A DNA stretch of 64,000 nt. Origin: a virus (lineage: Duplodnaviria; Caudoviricetes). The notes below the pieces were generated by a model that saw only the letters and a list, made by a program, of their open reading frames with translations, did not search any database and had not been told where the DNA came from. The stretch spans positions 357-64,356 of the IMG/VR virus record IMGVR_UViG_3300045257_000193. One strand, 5' to 3'. Positions 11,449-34,832 of the stretch are shown here, piece after piece; within the stretch, counting starts at the first letter, position 1; each line of letters opens with the position of its first letter. The position numbers and the translations under genes are program-made.

Positions 11449-11457
11449 TGTATATTA

Positions 11458-11605
11458 TTTGATTATTCCGAAGTAAATAATTAGTTTTGATTCAAGAATC
11501 GATCTGACACTATAGATTCAAAAAACATTAAAAGAATTGCCATTCTCAGAAAATTACCGAAGTCAGATCCGGTGAGAAGTACGTGGATGGCATCTTTATT
11601 TTATT
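11458..11605 (+). promoter_or_regulatory. Promoter plus two-hairpin kissing-loop leader 1
   Basis: TTTG(11458)-N20-TAGTTTTG(11482); loop GATCTGAC 11501-11508 complementary to loop GTCAGATC 11562-11569; stems GAATC/GATTC, TGCCAT/ATGGCA, TTCTC/GAGAA, ACCG/CGGT. Confidence 0.7.
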
Positions 11606-11791
11606 ATGGCAGAATATAAATTATCTGATTTCTACGACGAAGAAACAGTTGAAGAAATCAAGGATCAATCAGGTCTTGGCGATGCGGTTTTATTGCCAGC
11701 AGAAAATCTATCAGACCTTATGAAGGCGGAATTTTTATGTGAGATATTCAATAAATTCACACTTGCTCAATTGCAGGAAAAACTTAAATAA
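11606..11791 (+). CDS. Small acidic hypothetical protein
   Basis: 61 aa, first ORF after leader 1. Confidence 0.55.
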   Translation: MAEYKLSDFYDEETVEEIKDQSGLGDAVLLPAENLSDLMKAEFLCEIFNKFTLAQLQEKLK

Positions 11792-11792
11792 C

Positions 11793-12215
11793 ATGGAAAC
11801 AATTAATGCATCAGAATTATCTGTACTTCTTGATATTGACAAGAAGTCTGCAGTAAAAAAGATTGTATTTTGCCTTGACAAAAACAATATATGGTACGAT
11901 ATAGATGACACTAAAAATGTGTCTGTTAGCACCGAAATTCTAAGCAAGCACCTTGGTGTTGATTTCAACTTTTATATTAAAAATATACAGGAAAAGTACT
12001 TGACATCGCCAACTACAAGGGGGTTTATTTTTAATTATCCGATTAATGAAAAATTAAAGCTTAATCCAAAAACTAAGACTTATCCAAAGACAGTGTCTAT
12101 TCCGAGATATATTTCACAGTTTTTGACAGACGATCAAAAAGAGACCATTGTTCAGGAATGGAAGGATAGATATAATTCTCAAAAGGATTTCATAAATGTA
12201 ATTTTCAAGAAGTAA
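11793..12215 (+). CDS. Hypothetical protein (possible N-terminal HTH)
   Basis: METINASELSVLLDIDKKSA; ATG at 11793. Confidence 0.55.
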   Translation: METINASELSVLLDIDKKSAVKKIVFCLDKNNIWYDIDDTKNVSVSTEILSKHLGVDFNFYIKNIQEKYLTSPTTRGFIFNYPINEKLKLNPKTKTYPKTVSIPRYISQFLTDDQKETIVQEWKDRYNSQKDFINVIFKK

Positions 12216-12218
12216 TCT

Positions 12219-13001
12219 ATGGCAAACACAAATACGCACTCATTTAACATTGATGACGCTATAGAGTACGGTGTTCACGAAGCGATACTTCTTTATAATA
12301 TTACTTATTGGGCAAAATACAATAAGGCAAATGGTAAAAATTATTATGAAGTAGATCCAGAACAATATCCAAAACTGTCGGGTCAGAAAAGGTATTTCAC
12401 ATATAACTCCATAAAGGCTTTTAGTGAACTATTCCCTTATTTTTCTGTGGATCAAATAAGATTGATTATTAAAAAGCTTTGTGAAAAAGGCGTTTTAATA
12501 AAAGGTTGCTACAACAAATCTTCATACGATAGAACAATTTGGTATGCATTATATGACGAGAAGTCGATTGGGGTAATCACACAAGACCATTTGGTAGAAA
12601 TCCCAAATGAATTTGGTAGAAATCCCAAACCTATACCAGATATAAACACAGATGTAAACTCAGGTATAAATATCATATCTCGAACTATTGCTTTACTGAA
12701 TGAAAAATCAAATTCAAAATATCAGCCTACACGTAAAAGCACAGTTGCAGTAATTAAAGCAAGACTTGCCGAAAAGTTTACGGAAACAGATTTATCATTA
12801 GTTGTGGTTTCCAAAAGTAACCAGTGGTTAAATGATCCAAAAATGTCCGCATTCCTTCGACCAGAAACTCTTTTTGGCAATAAGTTTGAAGGATATTTGA
12901 ACGAAGCTTTGCGTGCGGCGGCAAAACCGAAAGGAACACAGGAATCAATACAAGACAAAGTAGCGGCGGCGGCGGCAACAAGTGAATTTAACCAGAAGTA
13001 A
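12219..13001 (+). CDS. Phage replication initiator (wHTH N-terminus, conserved phage C-terminal domain)
   Basis: YGVHEAILL..LCEKGVL..DRTIWY N-domain; FLRPETLFGNKFEGYLN C-domain; internal iterons. Confidence 0.8.
   Translation: MANTNTHSFNIDDAIEYGVHEAILLYNITYWAKYNKANGKNYYEVDPEQYPKLSGQKRYFTYNSIKAFSELFPYFSVDQIRLIIKKLCEKGVLIKGCYNKSSYDRTIWYALYDEKSIGVITQDHLVEIPNEFGRNPKPIPDINTDVNSGINIISRTIALLNEKSNSKYQPTRKSTVAVIKARLAEKFTETDLSLVVVSKSNQWLNDPKMSAFLRPETLFGNKFEGYLNEALRAAAKPKGTQESIQDKVAAAAATSEFNQK
12567..12672 (+). repeat. Iteron array, probable replication origin
   Basis: ATTTGGTAGAAATCCCAAA at 12589-12607 and 12611-12629 (22-bp period, degenerate copy at 12567); then three 12-bp repeats CAG(A/G)T(A/G)TAAA at 12637-12672. 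Confidence 0.7.
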
Positions 13002-13002
13002 G

Positions 13003-14934
13003 ATGGGTAAACTGAAATTTATACCGGTAAAGGATAAGATCCCTCAAGTTAAGGATTGGCAAACATCAACAGAAGATTTTGAAATAACCGGCGATCGCGG
13101 ACTTGTTACAGGGTTATTATCAGACAATCTAGAGGTTCTTGATTTTGATTTAAAGCACGAAGTAATTAAAGGCACATTAATGCCAGCGTATAAAGAAATG
13201 GTTTTGTCTTACGATAAAAACCTTTTAAGTCGCTTAACTGTACAAAAAACGGCAAACGGTGGATATCACTTTATGTACCGTTGTGAGGAAATTGAAGGGA
13301 ATTTAAAATTAGCATCGAGAGGAGTAACAACTGAAGAGAAGTTAATCAGTCCACATTTGAAGGTGATGGTGCTAATTGAGACTCGCGGACTTGGAGGACA
13401 GGTTGTTGTAAGTCCAACTCCTGGATATGAAATAATACAAGGTACTTTAGAAACAATTCCTACAATCACAGTAAAACAACGAGAAATATTAATTACCTGC
13501 GCCCGATCATTCAATGAGTTTGTAGAAGTTGTTAAGCATCAGACAATCCCAAACCCTAGCGGTATGGCAAGAATGTCCCCCTGGGAAGATTTCAATTTAA
13601 GGGGTGATACAGTATCTTTGCTTGAATCTTGCGGTTGGACTCATGTAATGACCAAAGGAAGTAAGATACACTTCAAAAGACCTGGTAGTACAGATGCATT
13701 AACGTCTGGTAATTACGACACAGAAAAGAATATGTTTTCTGTATTCTCCACATCCACGGAATTTGATATAAACAAGGGATATAAGCCATTTGCCGTGTAT
13801 GCGATGTTGAAGCATGGCAACGACGTTAAAGCAGCAGCAAGAGATTTGTATAACCAAAACTATGGAGAGCGCAACGAGTTTAAACCGGCAGAAGAATTAA
13901 AGCCAGCCCGAATTGTTGAGGATGACGACGACTTTAGTTTCCTTTCAGACGAGTCAGATATTGGTCAATACTTGGAACAGGTCCGGAATAATACGTTTGA
14001 ACTTGGTTTATGCATGGGTTCTGCTACTATCGATAAGTACCTTCGATATAAGCGTGGTAATCTCATGATGATAAACGGGTCTGACAACGTAGGTAAAACA
14101 ACTACAATTATCTGGCTGTACGTTCAGTGGTCAAAGGTAAATGGATTGAAATGGTTTATCTATACAACAGAAAATACCAACGGGTCGATAGCGGAGGACG
14201 TTATGGTTTTTTATATAGGTAAGAAATTAGATCAGTGTACTCCGGAAGAATTTTCTGAAGCTAAAAACTTCTTTAAAAAGCACTTCTTTCTGGTGAGACA
14301 AGTTGAAACATCTTTTGATTATGAAGAAGTGATCTTGATGGCCCGGAAAATGATAAGCAAGTACAGTATCGACGGCATGTTAATAGATCCTTTTTATAGT
14401 GTGCTTGGTGATATTAATGAGCAGAAGACGAGCGATCACGCATATCAGTATAAAGTTATAAGGGCTGTCAAATCATTTGGTCGAATGAACGGCGTTTCAA
14501 CATATATAAACATTCACTTAGCAACAGCCGCTTCACGTAAAGTAGATGCAGACGGCCATATGATTGCGCCTCAAAAGTCTGATTCTGAAGGCGGCAATAA
14601 GGGGTCTAACGTTGCTGACGAGTTCATTACTATACACAGAAAGACTCAGCACCCGGAACACTGGATGATAACTGAACTCCACGTTAGAAAAATTAAAGAG
14701 CGTAAAACTGGAGGTATGGTAACTCAAATGGATTCTCCAGTTATGCTAAGAATGAATAAGGATTTCTGTGGATTTACTGTAATCGGAGACGAGCAGAAGT
14801 ATGTGGAGCCTAAGAATAGTTTAAGTGAACGCACTCGAATATCTGGAAACGATAATTGGGTAAGTGAACAATCAGATACATTTCAGGACTGGTATAGTAA
14901 AATAGAGAAAGATGACGAGCCAGCACCTTTTTAA
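13003..14934 (+). CDS. Bifunctional Prim-Pol primase fused to SF4 (DnaB-like) helicase
   Basis: LEVLDFD, KTANGGYHF, IETRGLGGQVVVSPTPGY; Walker A GSDNVGKTT; Walker B MLIDP. Confidence 0.85.
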   Translation: MGKLKFIPVKDKIPQVKDWQTSTEDFEITGDRGLVTGLLSDNLEVLDFDLKHEVIKGTLMPAYKEMVLSYDKNLLSRLTVQKTANGGYHFMYRCEEIEGNLKLASRGVTTEEKLISPHLKVMVLIETRGLGGQVVVSPTPGYEIIQGTLETIPTITVKQREILITCARSFNEFVEVVKHQTIPNPSGMARMSPWEDFNLRGDTVSLLESCGWTHVMTKGSKIHFKRPGSTDALTSGNYDTEKNMFSVFSTSTEFDINKGYKPFAVYAMLKHGNDVKAAARDLYNQNYGERNEFKPAEELKPARIVEDDDDFSFLSDESDIGQYLEQVRNNTFELGLCMGSATIDKYLRYKRGNLMMINGSDNVGKTTTIIWLYVQWSKVNGLKWFIYTTENTNGSIAEDVMVFYIGKKLDQCTPEEFSEAKNFFKKHFFLVRQVETSFDYEEVILMARKMISKYSIDGMLIDPFYSVLGDINEQKTSDHAYQYKVIRAVKSFGRMNGVSTYINIHLATAASRKVDADGHMIAPQKSDSEGGNKGSNVADEFITIHRKTQHPEHWMITELHVRKIKERKTGGMVTQMDSPVMLRMNKDFCGFTVIGDEQKYVEPKNSLSERTRISGNDNWVSEQSDTFQDWYSKIEKDDEPAPF

Positions 14935-14984
14935 CCAAAACATTTGTATATATCAATTTAATAGTTTATTTTTGAATCAGAAAT

Positions 14985-15212
14985 ATGTATAGAGTCAACT
15001 TTACCTGCTGGGTCAAACCAAACCCGCTCAATAAAAAACCGGATGTATCAGATTGTATTTCATACTGGTATGAAGAAGTTGGAAATGATATTGAGCAGCT
15101 TAAAGCAAATGCGCGGAAAGCGTGGGGAGAAAATAAAGGTCCAAAGAGATTTAGGCTTTCACAAATAGTGAAAGGCGGAACTGACATACTGATTGAAGAA
15201 CATAACATTTAA
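14985..15212 (+). CDS. Hypothetical protein
   Basis: Follows a TATTTTTG box near 14967. Confidence 0.55.
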   Translation: MYRVNFTCWVKPNPLNKKPDVSDCISYWYEEVGNDIEQLKANARKAWGENKGPKRFRLSQIVKGGTDILIEEHNI

Positions 15213-15215
15213 ACA

Positions 15216-15611
15216 ATGGAATTGATAAAAACAAAGATGGGTAGGGTTGGTAACAACAAGAAATACGAGAATAAATTATTTATGTCAATCCAGCAAACGC
15301 GAGGAACAATGACTGATGATACAGCTAAATTTCTTGGCATTGAAACAGTTGGAATGATAGCGTTTTTTAGGAATGAAGGGAAAATATACATTAGTGTAGC
15401 TAAACTTGGCGATGATGTTTCAGATTACAAAAAAGTTGCAAGAGTTAACGGAAGATTTGGAATGTACACCAAGTCGCTCTGTTCATCTTATGGAGCAATT
15501 AAAGCAGGTGATTACGAAATAAAGATTCCGCCAGTTTCGGTTAATGGGAAAGATTGTTACGAGTTAAAGGTGATCAAGTATAAGCCAAAAAGTAAGGTTA
15601 AAAATAAGTAA
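15216..15611 (+). CDS. Hypothetical basic protein
   Basis: 131 aa ORF in operon. Confidence 0.55.
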   Translation: MELIKTKMGRVGNNKKYENKLFMSIQQTRGTMTDDTAKFLGIETVGMIAFFRNEGKIYISVAKLGDDVSDYKKVARVNGRFGMYTKSLCSSYGAIKAGDYEIKIPPVSVNGKDCYELKVIKYKPKSKVKNK

Positions 15612-15615
15612 AATC

Positions 15616-15851
15616 ATTTCAGCCAAGTATAGTACCTTCGAGTACGTGAGGCTGGGATAAAAACTATCTGCTGAAGATAAACATCCGCTACAAGAGAATG
15701 TGACGTGGAAGTGCTGCTAAGGGCACGTTGTTTATTGTAAGATAAAGTGATTAAAGGTAATGAGTAAGAAACATGTAAAAGTAGTTCTCTCAAACTCCTA
15801 GCGCATTCAGAGTTGCGGCTTTATTCCACTTAGAAATGGACAGATAGTTTT
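15616..15851 (+). ncRNA. Candidate structured ncRNA (~240 nt, multi-stem, possible pseudoknot)
   Basis: ORF-free gap; ATTTCAGCC/GGCTGGGAT hairpin; 11-bp closing helix AAAACTATCTG/CAGATAGTTTT enclosing several further stems. Confidence 0.6.
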
Positions 15852-15863
15852 AATTTATAAAAT

Positions 15864-16196
15864 ATGCCAACACCCTGCCCCAAGCCAGAGAAGCGACAAC
15901 CGAAAGAGAAGAAGCCGCTGAAGCGCGTAGGTAAACCTAATCTAGTTTCCAGTAAACGTATGATTCAGAATGCTGAGTACAAAATCGCAAGAGAAGAATA
16001 CCTTTCGGAATACGTTGTGTGTGAAGTGAAAGAATGCATGCATCCATCGGAACAAATTCACCATAAAAAAGGTCGGACAGGCAGTTTGTTGACAGATAAA
16101 AGATTCTTTCTAGCCGTATGTGCTTACTGTCATGCAGAGATCGAGAATAAGCCTGAATGGGCTAAGAAAATGGGGTATAGTTTAAATAGAATATAG
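15864..16196 (+). CDS. Small Zn-binding HNH nuclease with basic N-terminus
   Basis: CEVKEC..QIHHKKGR..LAVCAYCH. Confidence 0.75.
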   Translation: MPTPCPKPEKRQPKEKKPLKRVGKPNLVSSKRMIQNAEYKIAREEYLSEYVVCEVKECMHPSEQIHHKKGRTGSLLTDKRFFLAVCAYCHAEIENKPEWAKKMGYSLNRI

Positions 16197-16573
16197 TGAT
16201 CAGTAAAAAACCAGTAGCTAAGCGCAGCAAATACGGAAACGTAAAGACAGAATACAGCGGATATAAATATGATTCAAAAGCAGAGGCGCTGTATGCCCAA
16301 CATCTTGATTTAAGAATACGAGCCGGAGAGGTGGAAAAATGGGATCGCCAGGTAGTTGTTCATTTGGATATAGGCAAGGTTAAGATTTGTAAATACATAG
16401 CCGACTTTGTTGTAACGCTTAAAGACGGGTCGGTAGAATGGATTGATGTAAAAGGAGTTAAAACTTCTGTATTCCAAATAAAGCATAAGTTATTAAAGGC
16501 ATTAAGGCCTGATATAAAATTAATACTTATAGAAAAGAAGAAGCCGGCAAAGAAAAATATTAAAAAGAAATGA
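16196..16573 (+). CDS. DUF1064-family PD-(D/E)XK endonuclease
   Basis: SKYGN..YDSKAEA..KYIADF..IDVKG. Confidence 0.8.
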   Translation: MISKKPVAKRSKYGNVKTEYSGYKYDSKAEALYAQHLDLRIRAGEVEKWDRQVVVHLDIGKVKICKYIADFVVTLKDGSVEWIDVKGVKTSVFQIKHKLLKALRPDIKLILIEKKKPAKKNIKKK

Positions 16574-17265
16574 GAATAGTAGCAATAGGGGATACTCACG
16601 GACGAGACACGTGGAAGAAAATTGTTGATAAAGAAATGGATGCAGATAAAATTGTATTCATGGGAGACTACTTTGATAGCAAGGATAATATCAACGCTGA
16701 AATTCAAAAGTTAAACTTTAAAGAAATTTGCGAGATAAAGCAGTTGTATCCTGAAAAGTTCATTTTGTTATTTGGCAATCATGATTTTCATTATATCAGA
16801 GGTATACGCGAACAATATAGCGGATTTCAGGAATGGCAAATGACTGATATTGGGGAGTTAGTCCATAATGCCATAGATAAAAATATAGTGCAGATGTGCT
16901 ATATGAACGGAAACTTTATGTTTACTCACGCAGGAGTTACTAAAACTTGGTGTGAAAACAATGGAATAGATTTGTCACAGGATATCGAAGAAGCAATAAA
17001 TCTAAAGTTCTATTTTAATCCTGCAGCATTCAAGTTTAAGGCTGGCAAAAACGCTAGTCAATATGGTGATGATGTTACTCAATCCCCAATATGGGTAAGA
17101 CCATCAAGCTTATTAGAGGATCAGATAAACGATTATATACAGATTGTTGGCCACACAGTTCAGAAAGAAATTGTTGACTATATAGCATTAAGTTTAATTG
17201 ATACGATCGAAGTTGGTGAGTATTTATCAATAACTAACGGGAAGCGTAAAACAGAAAAACTATGA
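16570..17265 (+). CDS. Calcineurin-like metallophosphoesterase
   Basis: GDTHG, GDYFD, GNHD, HAG, VGHT. Confidence 0.9.
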   Translation: MRIVAIGDTHGRDTWKKIVDKEMDADKIVFMGDYFDSKDNINAEIQKLNFKEICEIKQLYPEKFILLFGNHDFHYIRGIREQYSGFQEWQMTDIGELVHNAIDKNIVQMCYMNGNFMFTHAGVTKTWCENNGIDLSQDIEEAINLKFYFNPAAFKFKAGKNASQYGDDVTQSPIWVRPSSLLEDQINDYIQIVGHTVQKEIVDYIALSLIDTIEVGEYLSITNGKRKTEKL

Positions 17266-17867
17266 GCGAACTAGATTTCTCCGGACTATACTGGAATGCA
17301 CATAATACAAAGAAGCCACTGGTAGATTTATACCCAGAGATAAACCAATACCCAGAACTTCGCTACGGCGGCATATACAAACAGGATAGTATACTAAAGT
17401 ATATAAATTACCTATACTCAGAAGGAACGCCGCTAATCAAGAAGTTCAAGGATAACCTTTTAGCTAGAAAGACGGAAGCGCTAAAACTTGCCGGTATAAA
17501 ACTTAATGACCATGTAAAATCAGATCTATTCGAATTTAAGGATCCGGAATTTACCAAGGCAGTTGTAAAGTTCCTGGCAATTCAGAATAACCCTCTTTGG
17601 GCCAATATTGTGGTGGATAATCAATTCATGGAGGATAACATGCTTATCGTGTTATCGCAATCCTTAGATGGCAAAGACAAGGATATTGCACAGACAGCAA
17701 AGATTAAAGGTGATCTGCTTAGGATAAATTCGGAAGTACGCGATCGATTGACTGGATATTACAAGGAGTTCTTTAAAAATGATACCGCACTTCAGAATGC
17801 GGCTAAGAAAGTAGAGTTTAGGGCAACAAATCCCGAAAGCGTGGCTAAAATCAATAGAGACTTTTAA
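17262..17867 (+). CDS. Hypothetical protein (possible terminase small subunit)
   Basis: Helical ~200 aa protein upstream of TerL; function inferred from position only. Confidence 0.35.
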   Translation: MSELDFSGLYWNAHNTKKPLVDLYPEINQYPELRYGGIYKQDSILKYINYLYSEGTPLIKKFKDNLLARKTEALKLAGIKLNDHVKSDLFEFKDPEFTKAVVKFLAIQNNPLWANIVVDNQFMEDNMLIVLSQSLDGKDKDIAQTAKIKGDLLRINSEVRDRLTGYYKEFFKNDTALQNAAKKVEFRATNPESVAKINRDF

Positions 17868-17868
17868 T

Positions 17869-18165
17869 ATGGATACCGGAGAAAAATCACCCAAACCAAT
17901 TGATAATATAGCAATAGGTGTAAATAACACCCCTACTGGATTATCAAATCATGATATAAAATGGAGTATAACAACCGATCACAGACTTATTATTAAAAAG
18001 CCTTTACAAATAAATTGGGAACCAAAAGAAGATATTACAACATATGAATTAGCTCAATGCCAAAATATATTAATGATAATATCAAGAGGGCCAATAATGC
18101 CAGAATGGATAGATATGACACCTACATACATGCGCCACTTTAATATAATAGATCCAAACAAATAA
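17869..18165 (+). CDS. Hypothetical protein
   Basis: WEPKEDITTYELAQC motif; in operon. Confidence 0.55.
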   Translation: MDTGEKSPKPIDNIAIGVNNTPTGLSNHDIKWSITTDHRLIIKKPLQINWEPKEDITTYELAQCQNILMIISRGPIMPEWIDMTPTYMRHFNIIDPNK

Positions 18166-18176
18166 AACCTAAAACT

Positions 18177-18521: not shown

Positions 18522-18523
18522 AT

Positions 18524-19344: not shown

Positions 19345-21400
19345 GCCTTTTGAAAATGGTACATCAGTTGTTATTCAGGATATAGAGATATTCTTGCCAC
19401 CCTTCCCTTTTGTGCCAAATTACTACGATGGGAGTGGTGATTTAATTGTTTCCGATGTTTTATTTTCAGATCAAGAAAAGGAAGGTCAATATTGGAGACG
19501 AGTTTTTGATCAAGTCTCTTATAATGAAAGGCGCAAGGAAGAAAAGCGACTTCAAAAACAGAACCCAGAATATATTGACGAAGACTTAGAGGAAATTAGA
19601 ATCCTTGAGTGGAAACGCCGTATGAACGGTGTTTGGATGATGAATAATGGCGATCCGGTCTATATGCCCGGCTTATATTATTTCTACCTAGCTCATTGGG
19701 TAATGGACACCGGATACGCAAAATTCAGGATACCAGACTTAGAAGATTTTTTATTTTGGCAGTATTGCTGTGAGGATCCATTATGCTTAGGTATGTTAAA
19801 GGTCACGGTTAGGCGTAACGGAAAGACGTACCAGGCAACAGTTAAGACTGCAGAGTATGTAATTAGACAAAGATTTAAGCACGGAGGAATACAGTCAAAA
19901 GCAGATGCCGATGCAAAAAAAGTTTATACTAAACACTTAATACAGCCATTAAAATATGTTGTTGACTTTTTCAAGCCAACGATGGACGAACAAAAAGGCG
20001 CAGCTCCTAAAAAGGAACTTTCATTATCTAAAACAATAACAAAAGACACTGATCAGCACGAAGCGTTTGAAACTGAACTTGGGTCTCTTATCGATTATAA
20101 GCCATCAGACATTATGGGTTATGACGGGGATAAATTACACAGATTCACGCACGACGAAGTTGGAAAGACCACATTAATAGACGTTTACGAAAGACACAGA
20201 GTTGTCCGTAAATGTTGTACGGATACCGAGACGGGCCATTATATCGGCAAAATGATAGCTACAACAACTGTTGAAGATATTGAAAAAGGCGGCAAGGAGT
20301 TTAAAGAATATTGGGACGGATCTAATCAAAAAAAGAAACATCCACAAACCGGACAAACAGAATCAGGATTGTACAGATTCTTTGTTCCGGCTTTTAGAAC
20401 AAAGCATTTTGATAAATATGGTTATCCGGACGAAGATCGCGCTAAGAAGGAAATATTGGCAATGCTTGAAAGCTATTCCAATAATCCCAAAATGCAGACT
20501 GCTGAGAGAAGGATGAATCCAATGACAGAAGCAGATCTTTTCGCATCTGATGCCGAACATTGCCCTTTTAACGTAGCCGTAATCGATAGCACGTTGCAAT
20601 ATATATCAATGCTTCCGGATAATGATAGGGAGCGTTGTAGAAGATTTGATTTGGTATGGGAAATTCCTGATGTAAAAGTAAAAGCAATCCCCAATTCAAC
20701 AAATGGTCGGTGGTCTATATCCTGGTTGCCGCCAGAATCTGATCAAAATCAAGTGCATGATAGCGGAGGTTCAGAACATAGATTTAAACCACTGAATGAT
20801 CATAAGTTTGCAATGGGGTGTGATCCGGTATCTATGGGTATAGAAGCTGTACACGGAAGTTCTTGTGCAGCCATAGCTGTCTATAGAAAGGCGGACGTTC
20901 ATCATGAGGCTGAATTGTTTTCCGAAAACTTTATAGCTGATTATGTGCATGACCCAGATAATCCAGAAGAGTTTTATGAAGACCAAATAATTGCTTGTTT
21001 CTTTTTTGGATGCGAAGTTCTTATAGAAAAAAACAAGTTCGATATTTACAATTACATGAAAAGGCGTGGGTATTTATCCTTTGTGATGTCTCAGCCTGAG
21101 AACACCGTATCTATCACCCACAAGGGAGAAATGAAAGAGGGGATATCTGCTGGTACATATACTATTGATTTATATGTAACAAGGTTAAAGTCTTGGTGGT
21201 CTCTACATGGTCACAGATGTAGGCAAGAAAGGGTTTTAGAGGACGCCAGAAGCTTTACCGTTAAAACTCGCGGCGAACACGATTTAACCGTTGCTTGCGG
21301 CTGGGCCAGACTTGCCGCGGAGAAACCATACAAACCGAAGACGGTTAATATACCGATCGGCTCACTATTTTCATTTAGGGAGCAACAAAGTAGACATTAG
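19337..21400 (+). CDS. terL: Terminase large subunit (crAss-like type)
   Basis: GLYYFYL adenine-binding region, RRNGKT Walker A, HDEVGK Walker B, MGCDP RNase H fold, HDLTVA. Confidence 0.9.
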
Positions 21401-21942
21401 TCTAATCGCCTCCAAAGGAACCCGCCAGCGATTTTGCCAGGAGTTTTAGATGCTATGACTATAGAGTTCATTCCTATTTTGTTATCATTATAGGCTTGTT
21501 TTATTGATTCATATACTTTAACTGGGATACTATCAATAGTAAGTTTTTCAATCCTTATACCAGCAATTCTATCCTTTCCGAACCTAGTTCGAACAGACCC
21601 TACTTTGCCAAGGGTATCATGAGAATGGTATTCATTTTCTTGATACGTACACCATTCTAAATTTTCAACTCTGTTATCGGTCTTTATACCGTTAATATGA
21701 TTAACGCATGGCTTATTATCCGGGTTTGGAATAAAGTGCAACGCAACCAGCCGATGCACTGTAAAAAACTTTCTTTTTGCATTATTACTTAATCCAATCC
21801 TAGGATACCCATATCTATTATTTGGAGTAGCTCTTTTCTTTTTCTGCTTAGTTGTCCAATAGTCTAATGAAAATACTTCTCCATTAGTATTTATAGTGTA
21901 TAGGTTTTCGTAATTAATAATTGGCACTTCTAAAATTTCCAT
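21397..21942 (-). CDS. NUMOD4-HNH homing endonuclease
   Basis: [13 protein letters not shown]; VHRLVALHF; [19 protein letters not shown]; ATG 21942 chosen because the upstream sequence is leader 2. Confidence 0.9.
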
Positions 21943-22050
21943 ATAACAAAATTGACCTTTACATACTAGGAATGTCTCACGATTCTGTTCTATAAAGGCC
22001 AATGATAAAGATTTTTTGCCCTATTGTGAGACAAGCGATAAACAAATATA
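21943..22050 (-). promoter_or_regulatory. Promoter plus two-hairpin kissing-loop leader 2
   Basis: TATATTTG (22043-22050, -); loop TGTCTCAC (22026-22033) complementary to loop GTGAGACA (21973-21980); stem TTGGCCTTTA/TAAAGGTCAA followed by TTTTG. Confidence 0.7.
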
Positions 22051-22104
22051 TGAAATATAAAAATAAAAAACTAAATTAGCGTAACTTATTGAAAATAATT
22101 AACT

Positions 22105-24498: not shown

Positions 24499-24535
24499 TA
24501 ATTTGTATTAATGATTTTTATTATTAACTTTGGTT

Positions 24536-24607
24536 AAAGTTTAGTTAGATAAGTAGTTTAAATTAGGTTTAAGTTAGCCGGGGGTAGTAGCTCGGCTAAC
24601 TTTTTTT
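24536..24607 (+). ncRNA. Candidate trans-acting small RNA (~70 nt)
   Basis: TTTG(24502)-N19-TAACTTTG(24525) promoter; no ATG; ends in intrinsic terminator AGTTAGCCGG..TCGGCTAACT plus T-run. Confidence 0.6.
24571..24607 (+). terminator. Intrinsic terminator
   Basis: GC-rich hairpin AAGTTAGCCG/CGGCTAACTT plus poly-T. Confidence 0.8.
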
Positions 24608-24615
24608 GCCTCATA

Positions 24616-27917: not shown

Positions 27918-27924
27918 TAAAATT

Positions 27925-27953: not shown

Positions 27954-27982
27954 CTTAATAAAAACCAAAAGAAAAGAAAACA

Positions 27983-28882: not shown

Positions 28883-28907
28883 AAAAGTAATTTGACACTC
28901 TTAAATT

Positions 28908-28942
28908 AAGACTATTCACCTTCATTGGTGAATAGTCTTTTT
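28908..28942 (+). terminator. Intrinsic terminator
   Basis: AAGACTATTCACC TTCATT GGTGAATAGTCTT TT. Confidence 0.8.
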
Positions 28943-28953
28943 AATTAAAAAAA

Positions 28954-31900
28954 ATGATACAGAATACGCTATTATTCTCAACAAAGTTCAATGTAGTTCC
29001 GACTACTGGAAAATTTGTATTAACCGATTTGTCACCATACGCTGGAGAAGGCATCGCCTTAACTAATGTAAAAGGTGTCTTCAAAATTGAAGGGCCTAGT
29101 GGTATAATTTATAACAATACGAATTTTGCAGCACCGGATATTGCTGCCAATGTAAGTTTAATATTTAACTCTGTATCATTGCCATTAGACACAGATGGAA
29201 ATATATTGAAAGGTACATATGTAATTACCTATAAAATTAGAGTAGCCGGCGGCGTTCAGTCAGGAGATTATACTTTTGTAGACACATCGTACTATTGCTA
29301 TGTAGCTCCGGTAGGGGATATTCAAGTGACAAATAGTGTAAGGCTAGCGAAAGTTACAAGTCAAGATTTGACTTCATATCCAATCAATGGCATTGTCCCA
29401 ACTATTTCAAGAACACATACATTGTGGTATCCATCTAGCTTGGGTTTGTCACCGACCGTATCTGGATTAGCTGAAATACAATTGTCATACCCAAATGTTT
29501 ATACAGGGACGTATACCGGTAAAATATCTACCGTTGCATCCTATGTATTTACTGATGGATTAATTGTTGACTACCTGATTACTGCAGTTGACGAAACAAT
29601 TGTTGACAATAAAACGCTTTGTGATATTTATTGTGGGATTAAGAATCTTACAAACGAAATGCTTACAGCTAGATCCACTGGAGATTTTGGCAAAGCTGAC
29701 AAAATACAGGAAACACTATCCTTAGTGTCAATACTATTCACGCTTTACGACGATGCAATTACTTGCGGCAAGGAAGATGATGCTACAAATTGGCTGAATC
29801 AAATAATTGCTATTGCAAACATTACAGTAGGATGTGGATGCACTGGCGACGAACCTACATTAGTTATTCCTGATGGGGGTGCCGGATCTGGCGGGGATGT
29901 AAATGTTCTAGGAGACTCATCGTTTGGAACAGCGGTAACATCCTCTACGGTAGGCTCAACAACTACATATACAGTTCGATTAACTGAGACGTATAAAGAT
30001 TTAATACTATCGGCCCTTCAATCACAGGACCTATCAGTTACAGCATTCAGAGCAGCCGGGATTCCAGAAGAGGCTAGAGGCGTTACAGTAACACCTATTA
30101 CATCAGGTGGTGGTACAATATCATTAACTCCTGGAGTATCTAAAAAAGTTTTAGTATTAACTGGTTCACCTTCATTATCATCATCACTAACAGTACAAAC
30201 CGTAGGAACTCCTATTGATGGTGATTCTTTTATTGTAGACTATAGAGCAACGTTAACGCCTAATGGCAATAATGTTACAATATTTGGGTTGGGGTTATCT
30301 CCTTCTGAAGCTGCTAGTGGAAATTGTTTAATATACACATGGTACGCAGCATCAAATACAACATGGTATGCTAAGTTAATTAGTAATCAAGCTGGATCAG
30401 CAATACAGGATGGATTAGCATTTTGGGTTGCCGGATCTGACTTTGTACTATCTAAAACTGTTTTATATGGATCTAATCCATCATTGATTTATAAAAATAT
30501 TCAAGCGTCCGGGTCTGGATCAAATCCTCCAACAGGAACAACGGCTAGTAATACGTGGTGGCAATTTGTTGGTAATAAATCGGCATTATATGATTCAAGT
30601 GATAATATAGTATTCGATGTTACAAGTGGCAAGCCATTAATAATTCCAACATTAAATAATTCAGCATCTACATTTAATTTCCTTGTACTTGAGGGGCAAG
30701 AAGTTAAAACTCGTGCATTGGCAACTTTAGCATTAGCTGGAACTACATTAACAACTGATAAAATATTAGTTGGTGGTGCCAGCAATATCGCTGTAGAAAA
30801 GACTTTAAATAGCGCTTTATTAAGAGCAATACCAGTTGGTAATATTTCTGGCCCTACATTTTACATACAGAACTTAATTAACTCCGGAACGATTACCATC
30901 GACCCTAGTCTTAGTACAAGACCGTATGTATTAAATGGTACCGTTACTCTTATAGGGAATGTATCAGTAGTTGCCAATGTTGGAACATCTATTCCTGGGG
31001 ATAACTTATGGATAGATTATAAGTCTATCGCAACACTTGGTGGTAATTCACTTACAATACTAGGAGTTACAATATCCGCCGCCGATGCATTAGCTGGTAA
31101 CTTTGGTATATATGGATACTTTGATAGCGGTTCAAGTGTTTGGGTTGGTCGAAAAATATCGTATGGGGTTGCACTTCCGATTGGAACAGTTAATCAAACG
31201 GTACGATATAACTCCTCAAACGTTCTTGTGGCTGACCCAAATGTATTACAAGATAATGTTGGTAATCTAATAGCTGCAGTATCAGTAAAGTCTGGATCAG
31301 GGCATAGTGGTATAGGTACTTCAGTGGTAGTAGCCGGAACCAGCAACGTTATAGATGGTAATAACAATATTGTTGGTGGTGCTGTAAACACGGTTTCCGG
31401 AGCAAATAACTTAGTTTCTGGGAATACAAATACGGTCGCTGGCATAAGAAATACAGTTTCAGGTCAGCAAAATAATATCACAGGTAATTCGAATCTTGTT
31501 TCAGGTCAGCAAAACACAGTTTCAGATAACTTCGCAGTAGTGACAGGTGTTTTAAATAGCGCAACGGGGATAACAAAAATAATCGGATCAGCAAATACTG
31601 GAACCGGCTCTGGTGGGTGTACAATAGAAGGAGATAATAATAGTCTTGATTTCTTTGGCGCATTATATGTTAGAATCATTGGTAATTATGCAAAAGCTGT
31701 AAATAGCTTTACACAAATATTCTCTACTGGTAATGGCGCACTTGGTAAACACCAAGAGGAAAAAGGCTTATTGTTCGGAACAACTACATCGGCAACCCCG
31801 TTAGTATTAAAACTAGATGTTGTAAGTCTTTTGTTTACCCTTCAGCCAAACGCAGCATATATATTCCAATGTAAGGTTGTAGGTATACAATCAGCAGGAT

Positions 31901-32142
31901 CAGCCGGCACAGTTGGGGATACGCATGCAATGGTAATCAAAGGAGCAGTTAAAAATATTGCCGGAACAATTACTTTGGTTGGGACACAGGTTGTTGATGG
32001 AGACTTCTCAGATGCAGCAGCTTCTACGTGGACAGCAGTATTCTCTGCTAGTACAAGCACATTGAACCTAACAGTTACCGGGCAGGCAAATAAAACGATA
32101 GAATGGACAGCATGCTTAACCGCTGTTAACGCAGGATACTAA
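28954..32142 (+). CDS. Multidomain virion fibre/adhesin protein
   Basis: Cys-rich hinge, duplicated ~80-aa beta domain, Trp-rich CBM-like module, GxxNxV repeats resembling a YadA-like beta-roll. Confidence 0.7.
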   Translation: MIQNTLLFSTKFNVVPTTGKFVLTDLSPYAGEGIALTNVKGVFKIEGPSGIIYNNTNFAAPDIAANVSLIFNSVSLPLDTDGNILKGTYVITYKIRVAGGVQSGDYTFVDTSYYCYVAPVGDIQVTNSVRLAKVTSQDLTSYPINGIVPTISRTHTLWYPSSLGLSPTVSGLAEIQLSYPNVYTGTYTGKISTVASYVFTDGLIVDYLITAVDETIVDNKTLCDIYCGIKNLTNEMLTARSTGDFGKADKIQETLSLVSILFTLYDDAITCGKEDDATNWLNQIIAIANITVGCGCTGDEPTLVIPDGGAGSGGDVNVLGDSSFGTAVTSSTVGSTTTYTVRLTETYKDLILSALQSQDLSVTAFRAAGIPEEARGVTVTPITSGGGTISLTPGVSKKVLVLTGSPSLSSSLTVQTVGTPIDGDSFIVDYRATLTPNGNNVTIFGLGLSPSEAASGNCLIYTWYAASNTTWYAKLISNQAGSAIQDGLAFWVAGSDFVLSKTVLYGSNPSLIYKNIQASGSGSNPPTGTTASNTWWQFVGNKSALYDSSDNIVFDVTSGKPLIIPTLNNSASTFNFLVLEGQEVKTRALATLALAGTTLTTDKILVGGASNIAVEKTLNSALLRAIPVGNISGPTFYIQNLINSGTITIDPSLSTRPYVLNGTVTLIGNVSVVANVGTSIPGDNLWIDYKSIATLGGNSLTILGVTISAADALAGNFGIYGYFDSGSSVWVGRKISYGVALPIGTVNQTVRYNSSNVLVADPNVLQDNVGNLIAAVSVKSGSGHSGIGTSVVVAGTSNVIDGNNNIVGGAVNTVSGANNLVSGNTNTVAGIRNTVSGQQNNITGNSNLVSGQQNTVSDNFAVVTGVLNSATGITKIIGSANTGTGSGGCTIEGDNNSLDFFGALYVRIIGNYAKAVNSFTQIFSTGNGALGKHQEEKGLLFGTTTSATPLVLKLDVVSLLFTLQPNAAYIFQCKVVGIQSAGSAGTVGDTHAMVIKGAVKNIAGTITLVGTQVVDGDFSDAAASTWTAVFSASTSTLNLTVTGQANKTIEWTACLTAVNAGY

Positions 32143-32801
32143 TGAATATTGACGAAGCTAAAGATTTCATATTCGCTATTGCCAGGAAAAATCAGATAGG
32201 CAATATTCCAATAACCCAATTGAATGGATATTTCGAAAGGGCGCAGTTGGATATTGTTTCTGAATTAAGGACGGCATTCCAGCAGACATCCATCATTTCG
32301 GATAATTTATCACCATTGATAACTCCTGTAGAAATATACAATCAAGGGGATGTATTCAATAAGCCAAGTGATTATTTATATTGGGTGGATCTATATTCTT
32401 TTGCTTTTACAAATAATAAGGATTGTGGAGTATTACCGGATAAGCAATGGGTGCCAATAGAATTAATACCACAAAATAAGTTAGCATATAGAAACAGATC
32501 AACAATAGTTCCAGCCGATACCATGTATCCAGTTGCAGTTGATTATGATAAATACTATCTTGTATTGCCGGCACCAAGTAAAGTTCAATTAACATACATC
32601 AGGGTACCTAAAAAGCCTAAGTGGGGATATATCGATACACCGCAAAGGCCAGTATATGATCCGACAACTTCTCAGGATTTTGAATTGCCGGAGATAACAC
32701 ACAAAGAGATTTGTTTTAGGGTATTATCATTTATGGGAATAGCTACAAGGGACGCTGATTTATATCAAACCACTACAGTAAATGACAGACCAGGTAACTA
32801 A
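32142..32801 (+). CDS. Tail ring/adaptor protein 1 (tail tubular A/P22 gp4-like)
   Basis: LTYIRVPKKPKWGY..DFELPEITHKEI pattern seen in crAss-like ring proteins. Confidence 0.65.
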   Translation: MNIDEAKDFIFAIARKNQIGNIPITQLNGYFERAQLDIVSELRTAFQQTSIISDNLSPLITPVEIYNQGDVFNKPSDYLYWVDLYSFAFTNNKDCGVLPDKQWVPIELIPQNKLAYRNRSTIVPADTMYPVAVDYDKYYLVLPAPSKVQLTYIRVPKKPKWGYIDTPQRPVYDPTTSQDFELPEITHKEICFRVLSFMGIATRDADLYQTTTVNDRPGN

Positions 32802-33369
32802 GTTAGCAGAACAGGTAATGCGCCTCCTGAATGGGGGAGATTACTCACCATCTGATTCTAAATGGGATATCAGGGAGATTGCTATTGCCGTTGAACAGGC
32901 TTCAGCTAAATTAATACGACTAAGAACATTTGAAGAGTATAGATCTGGTGAACCAAATTCACCAGGTCAATATTTGGCAACATTTACAGGAATACCCATA
33001 CAACGCGATACAACTAGAAATTTATCGTATATTGATATTCCGGCTAAGTATATTTCCCTTCCAAAAGGGCGCGGAGTACATTCGATAGGTCCGGAAGGGA
33101 ATGAATTTGTAAAATACATTCCGCTTGATGCGGGGGCTTTAAACTTCACAAACATCAGACAGGCACCATTCCTTCAAGGAAATTCAGGTTACTGGCTAGA
33201 AGGAAGTAATGCTTACTTCAGCAATGAGTTAAAGGGAAATGTAGTTATTAAATTAATTACCGGATCAGATCTAGTTGCCGATATGGAATCAGATATTGTA
33301 ACACAGGTTTATTCTATTTACAGAACAGAAAAACTAGAAGATAAAGTTATTAACGCTCAGGAGGAATAA
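32782..33369 (+). CDS. Tail ring protein 2
   Basis: ~200 aa, overlapping, in the ring-protein cluster. Confidence 0.55.
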   Translation: MTDQVTKLAEQVMRLLNGGDYSPSDSKWDIREIAIAVEQASAKLIRLRTFEEYRSGEPNSPGQYLATFTGIPIQRDTTRNLSYIDIPAKYISLPKGRGVHSIGPEGNEFVKYIPLDAGALNFTNIRQAPFLQGNSGYWLEGSNAYFSNELKGNVVIKLITGSDLVADMESDIVTQVYSIYRTEKLEDKVINAQEE

Positions 33370-34136
33370 TGGATCAGGGATACACCACATTAGATCAAAT
33401 AGTTCGCGAGGCTTGCATAGAATCCGATGATGCTGGACTACACAACTACAACAAATTTATGTTGTGGGCCATGGAAGGTCTGCAGGAAATGCGTATCGAT
33501 GATTTCCAGGAAATTAAATCCATCCTTGTAACTACTTCTACAATTGCTACGGTACCATTCCCAGTTGATATGGTTAAATGGACAAAGATCGGTGAAGTAT
33601 CCGGTGATCGAGTAAAAGTTTTTACGATCAATAACTCTTTAATGCTTAATCATAAAACTGATTGCGGCATTGAACAGAATAATCCCAAGTATCAGGCTAA
33701 ATCATACTACAACATTGCTAAAAATGATGTAGAGACATTGGATGGTTATTTCTTTTATGGATACGGTAGTTCAGGCGCTATTTACGGATACGGTAATGGT
33801 GTACAGGGTGATGGGCAATTCAGAGAAGATAAATCACGCAGAGAGTTCCAGTTCAGCTCACAGTATGCCTCAAAAGATATTGTACTGGAATACGTTTCAA
33901 CCGGTTTAAACCCTTCCGGACAGTCTTATATCGAAGAATCAATAAGAAAAGCAGTTAAAGAGTACATTTTCTGGTGGAAGACGGAACGCGATCGGACAGC
34001 GAGTGGCGGAGAGAAGGATCGGGCCAAATATCTGTACGATCAGGCAGCAAGAACAGCGCAGCGAAGAAACATGATTGACTTAGATACAATACAAGCTATA
34101 GTACGTAAGTCTTATTCACAGACTCCAAGAGGTTAA
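33369..34136 (+). CDS. Tail ring protein 3
   Basis: PFPVDMVKWTKIG..IVLEYVSTG..AVKEYI pattern. Confidence 0.6.
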   Translation: MDQGYTTLDQIVREACIESDDAGLHNYNKFMLWAMEGLQEMRIDDFQEIKSILVTTSTIATVPFPVDMVKWTKIGEVSGDRVKVFTINNSLMLNHKTDCGIEQNNPKYQAKSYYNIAKNDVETLDGYFFYGYGSSGAIYGYGNGVQGDGQFREDKSRREFQFSSQYASKDIVLEYVSTGLNPSGQSYIEESIRKAVKEYIFWWKTERDRTASGGEKDRAKYLYDQAARTAQRRNMIDLDTIQAIVRKSYSQTPRG

Positions 34137-34188
34137 AATAAACAGTAGTCAATACGATAATTGATCGTACCAGATTGACTCATTTGCG

Positions 34189-34222
34189 AACACCTTCATT
34201 AATTTGGAGGTGTTTTTATTTT
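34189..34222 (+). terminator. Intrinsic terminator (probably bidirectional)
   Basis: AACACCTTCA/TGGAGGTGTT plus T-run. Confidence 0.7.
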
Positions 34223-34680
34223 ATATGAAAAGCAATATATACAGCACAAAATAATGAGGCCATTAATGATAAATGTGCAAATAATAAATCATGAGTATAA
34301 TCATGTTTAATAAATCTTTTATTAAACCATATAAAAGACATGCATGAAAAACTCATTATTAACGAAAGCAATAGTGTATTTGTATTCATAATCTTAAATT
34401 TTAACTCGATTACCTTTAAACATGATTTAGATTCTTTGAGAGAAGTGATTGTTAAGGTTAAGCTAGTCTAAAACCCCTCCTATAAAAGACTAGCCTAACA
34501 ATACCATGATTTGAGTTCAATCGTTCGTTTCATGTGCATCAGAAAAAGCTATCCAATCTTAATGCGGTTTTAAATTTAACCTATTGTACAATAAAACAAT
34601 GGCCTGATCCAACGCACTATAAGAACGAAGTTTGAGGCAAACAAAACGACCAACAATTTAATTAATAGCACCTCTATTAA

Positions 34681-34832
34681 TGTAGGGCACAAAATTAAAG
34701 CCCTAATGATCTCGTACATCAATTAGGGCTTTGTTGATTATGCTCTACTAAAGCATAGATTGGAAAGACTTTCATAGGTGTACGAGACCCGATTTATATA
34801 TTCAAAATTAATACTATTTTTCAATAGTACAA
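34681..34832 (-). promoter_or_regulatory. Promoter plus two-hairpin kissing-loop leader 3
   Basis: TTG-N19-TAATTTTG (34803-34810, -); loop TCTCGTACA (34779-34787) complementary to loop TGTACGAGA (34710-34718); 11-bp stem AAAGCCCTAAT/ATTAGGGCTTT. Confidence 0.7.

Follow-up and report, generated by a model that had tools for sequence, protein, structure and literature searches.

What role could a leader RNA have in which the first nucleotides of the transcript are complementary to the loop of a terminator-like hairpin further down the same molecule? This question is raised by three intergenic sites in a 64,000-nucleotide (nt) stretch of viral DNA, referred to below as the window, which corresponds to positions 357 to 64,356 of the IMG/VR virus record IMGVR_UViG_3300045257_000193 and covers nearly all of this 64,356-base entry, estimated to be 60% complete. 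The phage is a crAss-like Bacteroidota phage, and its 1165-amino-acid (aa) gene at 34844-38341 (minus strand) carries a crAss-virus muzzle protein C-terminal domain. A preliminary description of the window had reported that three sites share one layout, and the sequences that it gave were all present as described. It had also placed the first leader ahead of the replication operon, the second ahead of an HNH nuclease and the third ahead of a region poor in open reading frames (ORFs). Our annotation agreed, since leader 1 precedes a PHROG replication-initiation protein and then a Prim-Pol primase, leader 2 an HNH gene (Pfam HNH_3) and leader 3 an ORF-poor region. Sequence comparison supports the view that the leaders at the three sites belong to one architectural class of structured 5' leader RNA behind Bacteroidota-type promoters, and we regard it as somewhat probable that each promoter is followed closely by a putative cis-acting attenuator or gate.

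Behind the TAnnTTTG box, all three sites have, in this order, a 5' arm, an A/U-rich linker, a long hairpin and a U tract (Table 1). The 5' arm is perfectly complementary to the apical loop of the long hairpin, over 8, 8 and 9 nt at sites 1, 2 and 3 (the order kept for all triplets of values below). At site 3, the arms UCUCGUACA and UGUACGAGA can form 9 Watson-Crick pairs, or 11 pairs if one G-U is included, and the minimum-energy fold does pair both arms. The cognate arm duplexes had predicted energies of −13.2, −13.2 and −17.4 kcal/mol, as compared with −3.6 to −9.6 kcal/mol for non-cognate combinations within the window. A stable hairpin with a GC-rich base and an immediate U tract is the signal of an intrinsic terminator, and all three leaders appear to possess it, their long hairpins (−20.2, −15.4 and −16.9 kcal/mol) being followed by UCUUUAUUUUAUU, UUUGUUAU and UUUAAUUUU, respectively. 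A start codon stands close behind the hairpin, at 8-13 nt, at site 1 (ATG 11606) and site 2 (ATG 21942); site 3 has its U tract without an ATG. Whole-leader fold z-scores were modest (−1.7, −1.3 and −2.9), and hairpin 1 was convincing at site 1 only (−3.7 kcal/mol), being weak at sites 2 and 3. Of the kissing loops described earlier, the perfect complementarity of 8-9 nt stood at all three sites, whereas site 1 and, in weak form, site 3 were the only ones where 'loop 1' proved to be the loop of a genuine hairpin. Since both partners vary in relatives, we consider the kissing loop as one form of a broader pseudoknot between a 5' arm and a terminator loop.

The transcription start was placed about 5 nt past each box because, according to the accessible part of PMC9723704, the TAnnTTTG box occupies positions −12 to −5 with respect to the start in Flavobacterium psychrophilum. 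Arm 1 would then begin at about +8, +6 and +10 of the transcript, and structure would begin within about 25 nt of the predicted start at all three sites. The same part of that paper gives a median 5' untranslated region (UTR) of 24 nt for this bacterium and states that Shine-Dalgarno sequences are not used by Bacteroidota. The leaders of sites 1 and 2 measure about 112 and 96 nt, as against this median of 24 nt. The window contains 85 boxes of the sequence TAnnTTTG, the sigma-A promoter motif in Bacteroidota, and 19 of them lie outside ORFs of at least 60 aa; behind the intergenic boxes that we took as promoters, an ATG mostly follows within a few tens of nt.

Complementarity over 8 nt is not special by itself, since inverted repeats occur in the window at chance level. 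Perfect inverted repeats of at least 8 nt with a gap of 20-100 nt numbered 122, versus 114.5 ± 7.2 in 20 dinucleotide shuffles, and the longer ones gave 25 versus 30.3 (at least 9 nt), 4 versus 8.7 (at least 10 nt) and 2 versus 2.3 (at least 11 nt). For the specific layout, all TAnnTTTG boxes on both strands were scanned, and the first 40 nt were set against the apical loops (±2 nt) of all hairpins that had at least 8 base pairs (bp) and lay within 135 nt. This gave 79 box-by-hairpin combinations. The longest match was 2-6 nt in 76 of them, and 8, 8 and 9 nt at exactly the three reported sites. Matches of at least 8 nt (3/79) compare with 0.42 expected from the non-cognate rate of 0.53% (binomial P=0.0086); the specific layout exceeds chance modestly in the window. 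The comparison with shuffled controls, which the preliminary description had named as able to undo its proposal, went against the bare 8-nt repeats and in favour of the box-to-apical-loop layout.

Leaders at the corresponding position in other phages carry the argument further. The site 1 promoter opens the replication operon some 1.4 kb ahead of the primase, and it is this position, together with the architecture, that ties site 1 to the leader class. Relatives of the primase number in the hundreds. Close ones among them (P0002 and P0004-P0006), 63-85% identical and encoded on contigs of up to 72 kb, would be expected to come with homologues of sites 1-3. For the test, 30 primases were aligned and led to 80 viral loci, 43 of which had enough upstream DNA and were used. 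Leaders were defined by the TAnnTTTG boxes found on the primase strand at 850-1900 nt upstream, all of which were used; 46 distinct leaders were left once identical ones had been dropped (L231, for example, equals L230). A hairpin domain of at least 8 bp was present in 38 of the 46, and the first 40 nt of these leaders were matched to the unpaired runs in the domain. Since MAFFT failed to align leaders of different subfamilies, covariation across subfamilies was tested as cognate versus non-cognate pairing and not in one alignment. Cognate pairing of at least 7 nt occurred in 10 of the 38 leaders, with 1.16 expected (non-cognate rate 3.06%, P=1.5e-7), and pairing of at least 8 nt in four of them, with 0.19 expected; a looser version of the test gave 8/46 versus 2.13. 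By eye, L241, L242, L265 and L274 fitted as well, as did L253, which was found by a covariance model.

The arm pairs differ between all clades (ACCAUCAC/GUGAUGGU, GUCAGAG/CUCUGAC, GUUGCAG/CUGCAAC, UUCACAAC/GUUGUGAA, GAUGCCG/CGGCAUC and UGCAAAACGAAU/AUUCGUUUUGCA). The 5' partner is either the 8-nt loop of a hairpin (L247, L255, L261, L265) or the 5' end of the transcript itself (L230, L242, L274, with helices of 8-13 nt), and the 3' partner is an 8-nt apical loop or a bulge of 7-8 nt (L234 and a second element of L260), always falling on an unpaired stretch of the long-hairpin fold. This hairpin is an uninterrupted one of 14 bp in L253. Fold z-scores of the fitting primase-upstream leaders ranged from −1.7 to −6.2, a U tract stood behind the long hairpin in every class member that was read, and the spacing from hairpin to ATG was roughly 8-20 nt in the members with an observed ATG (most relatives as well as sites 1 and 2). 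As far as sequence and predicted folds can tell, these comparisons show that distant relatives, too, keep this architecture where the replication operon begins.

A second leader-like element is found on the plus strand of L247 (8400-8534) and L260 (9048-9182), immediately upstream of the 262-aa gene found ahead of the primase. A GGCGAAAGCC hairpin, a hairpin 1 whose loop reads CUUGGAAC and a long hairpin in which the 7 nt GUUCCAA form a bulge (pair UUGGAAC/GUUCCAA) make up this element, so that these phages would carry two differently addressed elements in tandem.

Covariation within a single alignment could be followed in subfamily A. Three viral loci have a common backbone, and a pattern run on metagenome contigs that fixed the flanks of the apical hairpin and left 14 nt free yielded 13 further loci. 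In the resulting 16 sequences (14 distinct), the seven loop-loop pairs were standard in 99% of cells, and three alleles occurred: GUAGGAG/CUCCUAC, GUAGAGG/CCUCUAC and GUAGCAG/CUGCUAC. The covariance model built from the 16 sequences, R1, also found L261 (E=8e-10; GUUGCAG/CUGCAAC) and L253 (E=0.018). With L261 included (17 sequences, 15 distinct), the 7-bp helix was paired in 99% of cells and both-sided changes were seen at three of the seven loop-loop pairs (GC/CG/AU, AU/GC and AU/UA). The whole-structure covariation score was 0.325, versus 0.126 for shuffled alignments, none of 500 of which reached it, and 0.01-0.07 when the partners were slid by 1-3 columns. The invariance of the middle stem and of part of the lower stem is uninformative because both were fixed by the search pattern. 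G-U pairs are tolerated in the stems (column pair 52/102, for example, is G-U in five sequences), and the structure is therefore one of the transcribed RNA strand. The codons past the ATG vary among subfamily-A leaders; this variation and the second elements in L247 and L260 indicate that the leader behaves as a module ahead of varied genes. The earlier claim that the pairing is kept while its sequences differ is thus borne out by compensatory change in relatives, namely in 10/38 primase-upstream leaders and at 3/7 subfamily-A pairs.

The nearest relatives of the window phage are the IMG/VR contigs G001 (16.5 kb) and G002 (50.5 kb), with proteins 70-84% identical to those of the window. At the place of site 1, G002 has kept a 15-nt block around the −33 element and a TATCTTTG box. 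There is no homology in the leader or in the first two genes, and the replication initiator comes from a different PHROG family. In this leader the loop of hairpin 1 is exactly AGUGGAUA and the apical loop of the long hairpin exactly UAUCCACU, followed by a U tract and an ATG (fold z=−4.2). Downstream of the muzzle-domain gene, G002 has unrelated DNA with its own promoter, an arm GGUUCAG, an A-rich linker and a terminator loop CUGAACC (L083:6930-7050), and no credible gene start behind it. Differently paired elements number three in the window phage and two in G002. Compensatory change in homologues, on which the preliminary description had staked its proposal, was accordingly found for the class and at the site 1 position in G002; for sites 2 and 3, no homologues were found.

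Some further features of these contigs were noted. Window positions 11449-13001 and L104:3709-4771, between conserved flanks (a 434-aa gene and the primase), resemble a swapped replicon-specificity module. The segment L083:7050-7700 of G002 is GC-richer and ORF-poor and is followed by a short ORF; it resembles the remnant of an HNH cassette because a 25-nt stretch is 96% identical to the HNH gene of the window. The linkers at 11520-11537, L104:3773-3790 and L083:6962-6980 belong to otherwise unrelated leaders and have the motif CA(A)AAGCAUUAA(A) in common, which in three cases may be due to chance or to a protein site; MAFFT on the five leaders of the window phage (G000) and G002 found nothing common beyond this short motif.

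Site 2 appears to travel with the HNH gene, since at the equivalent junction of G001, between the conserved 687-aa and 797-aa genes, neither the HNH cassette nor the leader is present and a 143-aa ORF on the opposite strand replaces both. This junction (window 21397-22104 versus L082:2338-3000) is a cassette hot spot; the 143-aa ORF of G001, on the plus strand, is unrelated.

Other searches for relatives returned little. A 14-nt promoter pattern had at least 119 matches, and among the matches listed the right box spacing was found only in G002 and in L166, the latter with a 7-nt arm pair. A DNA search of the phage collection gave nothing useful, and a search with the 260-aa protein matched only its promiscuous C-terminal domain. 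In bacterial genomes the pattern search gave no match; alignment of the primase led to 13 bacterial loci, and in the three inspected no box occurred 700-2000 nt upstream.

Table 1. Leader features at the three sites and the genes behind sites 1 and 2 (window positions; folds, energies and transcription starts are predictions)
Feature	Position	Strand	Details
Site 1 promoter	11459-11489	+	−33 TTG 11459-11461, 20-nt spacer, −7 box TAGTTTTG 11482-11489; predicted start ~11494
Site 1 hairpin 1	11496-11519	+	stem GAAUC/GAUUC (11496-11500 with 11515-11519), 14-nt loop; minimum-free-energy fold −3.7 kcal/mol
Site 1 arm 1 GAUCUGAC	11501-11508	+	inside 14-nt loop of hairpin 1
Site 1 A-rich linker AAAAAACAUUAAAAGAAU	11520-11537	+	from sequence
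Site 1 long hairpin H2, 55 nt	11538-11592	+	10-nt apical loop; fold −20.2 kcal/mol; shuffle P=0.0075
Site 1 arm 2 GUCAGAUC	11562-11569	+	in apical loop; cognate duplex −13.2 kcal/mol
Site 1 U-rich tract	11593-11605	+	then ATG of 61-aa ORF at 11606
Leader-1 operon	11606-14934	+	61-aa ORF, 158-aa ORF, 260-aa replication-initiation protein, 650-aa Prim-Pol primase/helicase
Replication-initiation protein, 260 aa	12219-13001	+	PHROG replication initiation protein 4.9e-39; Pfam Phg_2220_C in operon
Prim-Pol primase/helicase, 650 aa	12982-14934	+	Pfam Prim-Pol
Site 2 −7 box TATATTTG	22050-22043	-	predicted start ~22038
Site 2 arm 1 UGUCUCAC	22033-22026	-	about +6 to +13; mostly in 5' strand of weak G-U-rich hairpin
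Site 2 long hairpin H2, 53 nt	22003-21951	-	13-bp lower stem; fold −15.4 kcal/mol; shuffle P=0.001
Site 2 arm 2 GUGAGACA	21980-21973	-	7/8 nt within 8-nt apical loop CGUGAGAC; cognate duplex −13.2 kcal/mol
Site 2 U tract UUUGUUAU	21950-21943	-	then ATG of HNH gene at 21942
HNH endonuclease gene with U tract	21397-21950	-	Pfam HNH_3, 4.5e-10
Site 3 −7 box TAATTTTG	34810-34803	-	34 nt past stop codon of 1165-aa gene (34844); predicted start ~34798
Site 3 weak hairpin 1, GGGU[CUCGUAC]ACCU	34790-34776	-	4 pairs, −2.0 kcal/mol; arm 1 34789-34779
Site 3 middle hairpin AUGCU..AGCAU	34756-34740	-	in linker; from fold
Site 3 terminator-like hairpin, 36 nt	34732-34697	-	7-nt loop GUACGAG; −16.9 kcal/mol; shuffle P=0.0035
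Site 3 arm 2 UGUACGAGAUC	34718-34708	-	cognate duplex −17.4 kcal/mol
Site 3 U tract	34699-34691	-	no ATG within next 15 nt

How might such a leader act? In the scheme that we favour, though not strongly, the host sigma-A RNA polymerase would start about 5 nt past the TAnnTTTG box, and arm 1 would lie within the first 10-40 nt of the transcript, as part of a small hairpin's loop or of an unpaired 5' end. The A/U-rich linker, followed by the long hairpin and the U tract, would then present the layout of an intrinsic terminator, with the unpaired loop of the long hairpin providing arm 2, whose complementarity to arm 1 extends over 7-12 nt. Arms 1 and 2 would pair in a tertiary helix, as a kissing loop or an H-type pseudoknot, which would coexist with the hairpin. 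Most transcripts would come to an end some 100 nt further down, and read-through would be needed to express the genes behind; with an ATG only 8-13 nt past the hairpin, as at sites 1 and 2, the downstream gene should be expressible from the leader promoter in no other way. Such a cis gate would set or time transcription into dosage-sensitive genes, i.e. those for the replication initiator, the primase and the HNH nuclease. The tertiary helix may fold or lock the long, interrupted hairpin, may show a compact fold to a releasing factor or may bury the 5' end. Because the helix leaves the terminator stem uncontested at sites 1 and 2, it would not work as a classical antiterminator.

A number of results weigh against this scheme, or against the breadth of the class, and have to be set beside it. 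The role of the tertiary helix is its weakest step, a loop-loop helix not obviously altering the formation of the lower stem. R1, run against the window, detected none of sites 1-3; with filters off it gave 16 matches with E of 0.98-8.5, none of them at a site on its own strand. R1 is narrow, with an effective sequence number of 1.19. The membership of the window sites is one of architecture and not of demonstrable homology. Sites 2 and 3 have no homologue in G001 or G002 and rest on the statistics within the window and on the shared architecture. Site 3, moreover, leads into the ORF-poor region with no start codon behind it, and since it comes right after the stop codon of the 1165-aa gene, its hairpin may simply be the terminator of that gene. 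Among 36 loci of HNH relatives in other phages, a TAnnTTTG box was found within 330 nt upstream in five (L321, L333, L334, L339, L345), none of which has the leader layout.

The broader counts point the same way. Loops of hairpins with a 4-bp stem matched upstream sequence 61 and 48 times and downstream control sequence 45 and 61 times, which is no excess. When the first 35 nt were compared with the rest in 130 leaders of 79 loci, matches of at least 8 nt numbered 24 versus 17, 19 and 20 in decoys, again without a class-wide excess. The apical-loop test gave 7 over all loci versus 4, 10 and 5 in decoys, and over 1175 combinations 5 versus 0, 3 and 7 (at least 8 nt) and 18 versus 6, 17 and 24 (at least 7 nt). 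Two of the ten primase-upstream positives (L237, L266) resemble a match rich in A/T or a nested stem of the usual kind; L247 and L260, also among the ten, are mutually related. At L316:1675-1787 (minus strand), finally, the loops are mismatched, GUAGAGG standing against CUCCUAC with one mismatch and one G-U pair.

With regard to these counts, the extra matches of the 1175-combination test away from primase genes were rejected as coding-region noise, and a loose two-hairpin descriptor was abandoned (6373 real versus 5865 and 8236 decoy matches). In L316, hairpin 1 comes from one allele and hairpin 2 from another, its 3' half being identical to L247; this locus is either a natural recombinant or an assembly chimera.

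How do other explanations fare with the same data? The leaders could be 5' UTR folds that stabilise the message or set its translation while termination goes uncontrolled; they would slow 5'-end-dependent decay and offer a U-rich, Shine-Dalgarno-independent landing site for the ribosome. The short spacing between hairpin and AUG, roughly 8-20 nt, and the long-range helix formed by the 5'-terminal nucleotides of L230, L242 and L274 would suit such a role. So would a structure that starts at or near the predicted +1 in relatives, like the GCCGAAAGGC hairpin of subfamily A at +1, with the start position taken from the accessible part of PMC9723704, which also describes Bacteroidota as doing without Shine-Dalgarno sequences. 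Site 3 and L083:6930-7050, however, have no credible gene start behind them, a GC-rich stem base followed by 5-9 U is a textbook intrinsic terminator, and it would be left unexplained why the partner must be the terminator loop. We consider this explanation rather unlikely. It is unlikely, too, that the leaders are self-addressed riboregulators acting in trans, in which a short RNA ending at the U tract would pair with nascent leaders of the same address. This RNA would accumulate with genome copy number and raise termination or block translation, and the complementarity in cis would be a by-product of a common transcript for regulator and target, the arrangement of P4 CI RNA and of P1/P7 C4 RNA. 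Pairs that are hypervariable and always complementary are as expected of a specificity determinant and would be explained best in this way; cognate duplexes far stronger than the non-cognate ones (−13.2, −13.2 and −17.4 versus −3.6 to −9.6 kcal/mol), the presence of several differently paired elements per genome (window phage, G002, L247, L260) and a position ahead of replication genes, as in phage P4 according to the accessible part of PMC4825925, would also agree with it. Two arms only 30-60 nt apart on one molecule should nevertheless favour intramolecular pairing. There is furthermore no sign of RNA processing sites, the window holds no extra copies of the arm targets beyond chance (one or two stray 8-mers each), the Rfam C4 family gave no match and the annotated part of the phage contains no lysogeny module. 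Were the leaders to act in trans, which to us is equally doubtful in its further consequences, the released RNAs of about 100 nt would be orthogonal copy-number-sensing channels with private addresses, serving replication genes and selfish nucleases in a virulent crAss-like phage. A logic like that of P4 CI would then have evolved independently in Bacteroidota phages, with address pairs swapped along with gene cassettes.

A more sceptical explanation would leave only site 1 in the conserved element and see in sites 2 and 3 ordinary promoter and terminator neighbourhoods with a coincidental complementarity. The chance frequency of 8-nt inverted repeats (122 versus 114.5) and the modest excess in the window (P=0.0086) speak for it, as do the lack of homologues and of an R1 match and the weak hairpin 1 at both sites; at site 3 the hairpin also sits where the 1165-aa gene needs a terminator. 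We still find it quite improbable, since these two sites are two of only three outliers in 79 combinations, with shuffle P of 0.001 and 0.0035. At both of them the complementary segment falls on the long hairpin's apical loop and the leader, behind an intergenic box, is unusually long, and other phages have multiple, differently addressed copies per genome. Next to negligible, in our view, is the chance that the element is a DNA-level signal, such as an operator or origin made of inverted repeats, or a ligand-sensing riboswitch. It does adjoin replication genes, and the guanidine-IV riboswitch, in the accessible part of PMC11611296, links its sensor hairpin and expression platform by a kissing loop. 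The G-U pairs of the stems, however, are C-A mismatches on the other strand, and no one protein could read arms whose sequences vary from site to site. As to a riboswitch, the subfamilies share no conserved unpaired nucleotides from which a ligand pocket could be built (L253 is an example), and the Rfam riboswitch models gave no match. The cis-acting attenuator or gate is the reading that we retain.

Some other parts of the window were noted in passing. A search for tRNAs in the window found none. At gathering score, the only Rfam match in the whole window was Flavo-1, at 62035-62108 (plus strand), an RNA family otherwise described from Flavobacteria; the match is full-length, with 48.4 bits versus a gathering score of 42, and on the opposite strand it overlaps a 55-aa ORF of our crude ORF map. 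Just past the 797-aa gene, at 24525-24613 (plus strand), a TAACTTTG box stands ahead of a strong terminator hairpin that ends in a T run, without any ORF. This unit, which has a counterpart in G002 at 35697 (minus strand), resembles a small RNA gene or a bidirectional terminator, and arm-loop complementarity is absent from it (longest match <6 nt). A 255-nt ORF-free gap within the replication operon, ahead of a 110-aa ORF (15612-15866, plus strand), folds with −61.8 kcal/mol (z=−2.3); it has no promoter box and was ruled out as a leader of the same class. Adjoining the virion genes is a 2122-aa ORF (41376-47744, plus strand), the size of which we take to be in the range of the virion-packaged RNA polymerases of crAss-like phages, no search having been aimed at it.

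Gene control in Bacteroidota and their phages is poorly known, with unusual promoters, no Shine-Dalgarno sequences and few characterised RNA regulators. The present element lies at the entry to replication genes and mobile nuclease cassettes of abundant environmental phages. With its architecture and a freely re-coded tertiary helix of 7-12 bp as the only conserved features, it would be an unusual natural RNA part, modular and programmable by sequence. If the gating were true, it would offer a handle on phage timing and a natural template for orthogonal Bacteroidota RNA parts.

To which known systems can the leaders be compared? The preliminary description could not assign them to a named family, and we came to the same result: at the three sites Rfam gave only chance-level matches at E up to 10, and there was none in eight related loci. 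Membership in an Rfam riboswitch or C4 family was rejected, no covariance model matching at the sites, and the element is absent from Rfam 15. Our literature search, from which most subscription journals were out of reach, found no description of such leaders in crAss-like or Bacteroidota phages. Loop pairing as such is well known. In the ColE1 pair RNA I/RNA II, fully paired 7-nt loops are a stable recognition unit; there the pairing is between two molecules from opposite strands, whereas both arms of the phage leaders are on one transcript. In corrinoid riboswitches, an L5-L13 kissing loop reportedly connects an upstream domain with the regulatory hairpin; these riboswitches have a large conserved aptamer, unlike the phage leaders. 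Closer in layout is the guanidine-IV riboswitch (mepA motif), in which, as described in the accessible part of PMC11611296, an upstream hairpin kisses a terminator-linked hairpin and thereby decides on read-through. It is likewise a two-hairpin 5' leader with a kissing loop to an intrinsic-terminator hairpin. Its kissing loop is induced by ligand, disfavours the terminator and has conserved loop nucleotides. The phage leaders, in contrast, have hypervariable loops with 7-12 Watson-Crick pairs, no conserved pocket that we could see, a pairing compatible with the terminator and no Rfam match.

Specificity by compensating sequence pairs is known from the C4 RNA of phages P1 and P7. In phage P4, the accessible part of PMC4825925 describes a CI RNA that pairs with seqA and seqC in the leader, whereupon premature termination stops the expression of replication genes; as in the window, the complementarity is in sense orientation and inside the leader of an operon with replication genes. 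CI and C4 are processed from the leader and act in trans in lysogens, whereas the phage leaders show no sign of processing or lysogeny, have as 3' partner the loop of a terminator hairpin beside a start codon and do not match the Rfam C4 model. In phage lambda, a short RNA, 6S, runs from PR' to the nearby terminator tR' until Q releases the polymerase. This unit, too, combines a promoter, an intrinsic terminator within about 100-200 nt and read-through into an operon. No long-range pairing of the 5' end with the loop of its terminator is known for this unit, and the promoter is where Q acts; a Q-like gene was not noticed in the phage, although no search was aimed at one.

Two further cases come from mobile elements. 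The conjugation operons of pLS20 have a zipper-type attenuator in which, as the accessible part of PMC13401043 describes, an upstream leader segment is complementary to the terminator region before the first gene. A long leader on a mobile element, with an upstream segment complementary to an intrinsic-terminator region, is common to both systems. The pLS20 segment pairs with the terminator strands and so forms an antiterminator, whereas the phage arm pairs with a loop or bulge. A zipper was rejected for the window sites: at sites 1 and 2 only the apical loop is engaged and the stem stays intact, and at site 3 the arm covers the loop plus 1 and 3 flanking nt, so that the top 3-4 pairs compete. 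In phage T4, transcript levels of the free-standing HNH gene mobE are regulated by an intrinsic terminator according to the accessible part of PMC2790892, which parallels site 2 in that both stand at mobile HNH genes; mobE lacks its own promoter, the terminator lies within the gene and no loop pairing is known there. Taken together, the leader element is an uncatalogued one of a known kind, the leader attenuators with long-range loop pairing; its reading as a modular RNA control element with re-coded pairing is partly supported, with its structure supported by the data presented here and its function inferred from them.

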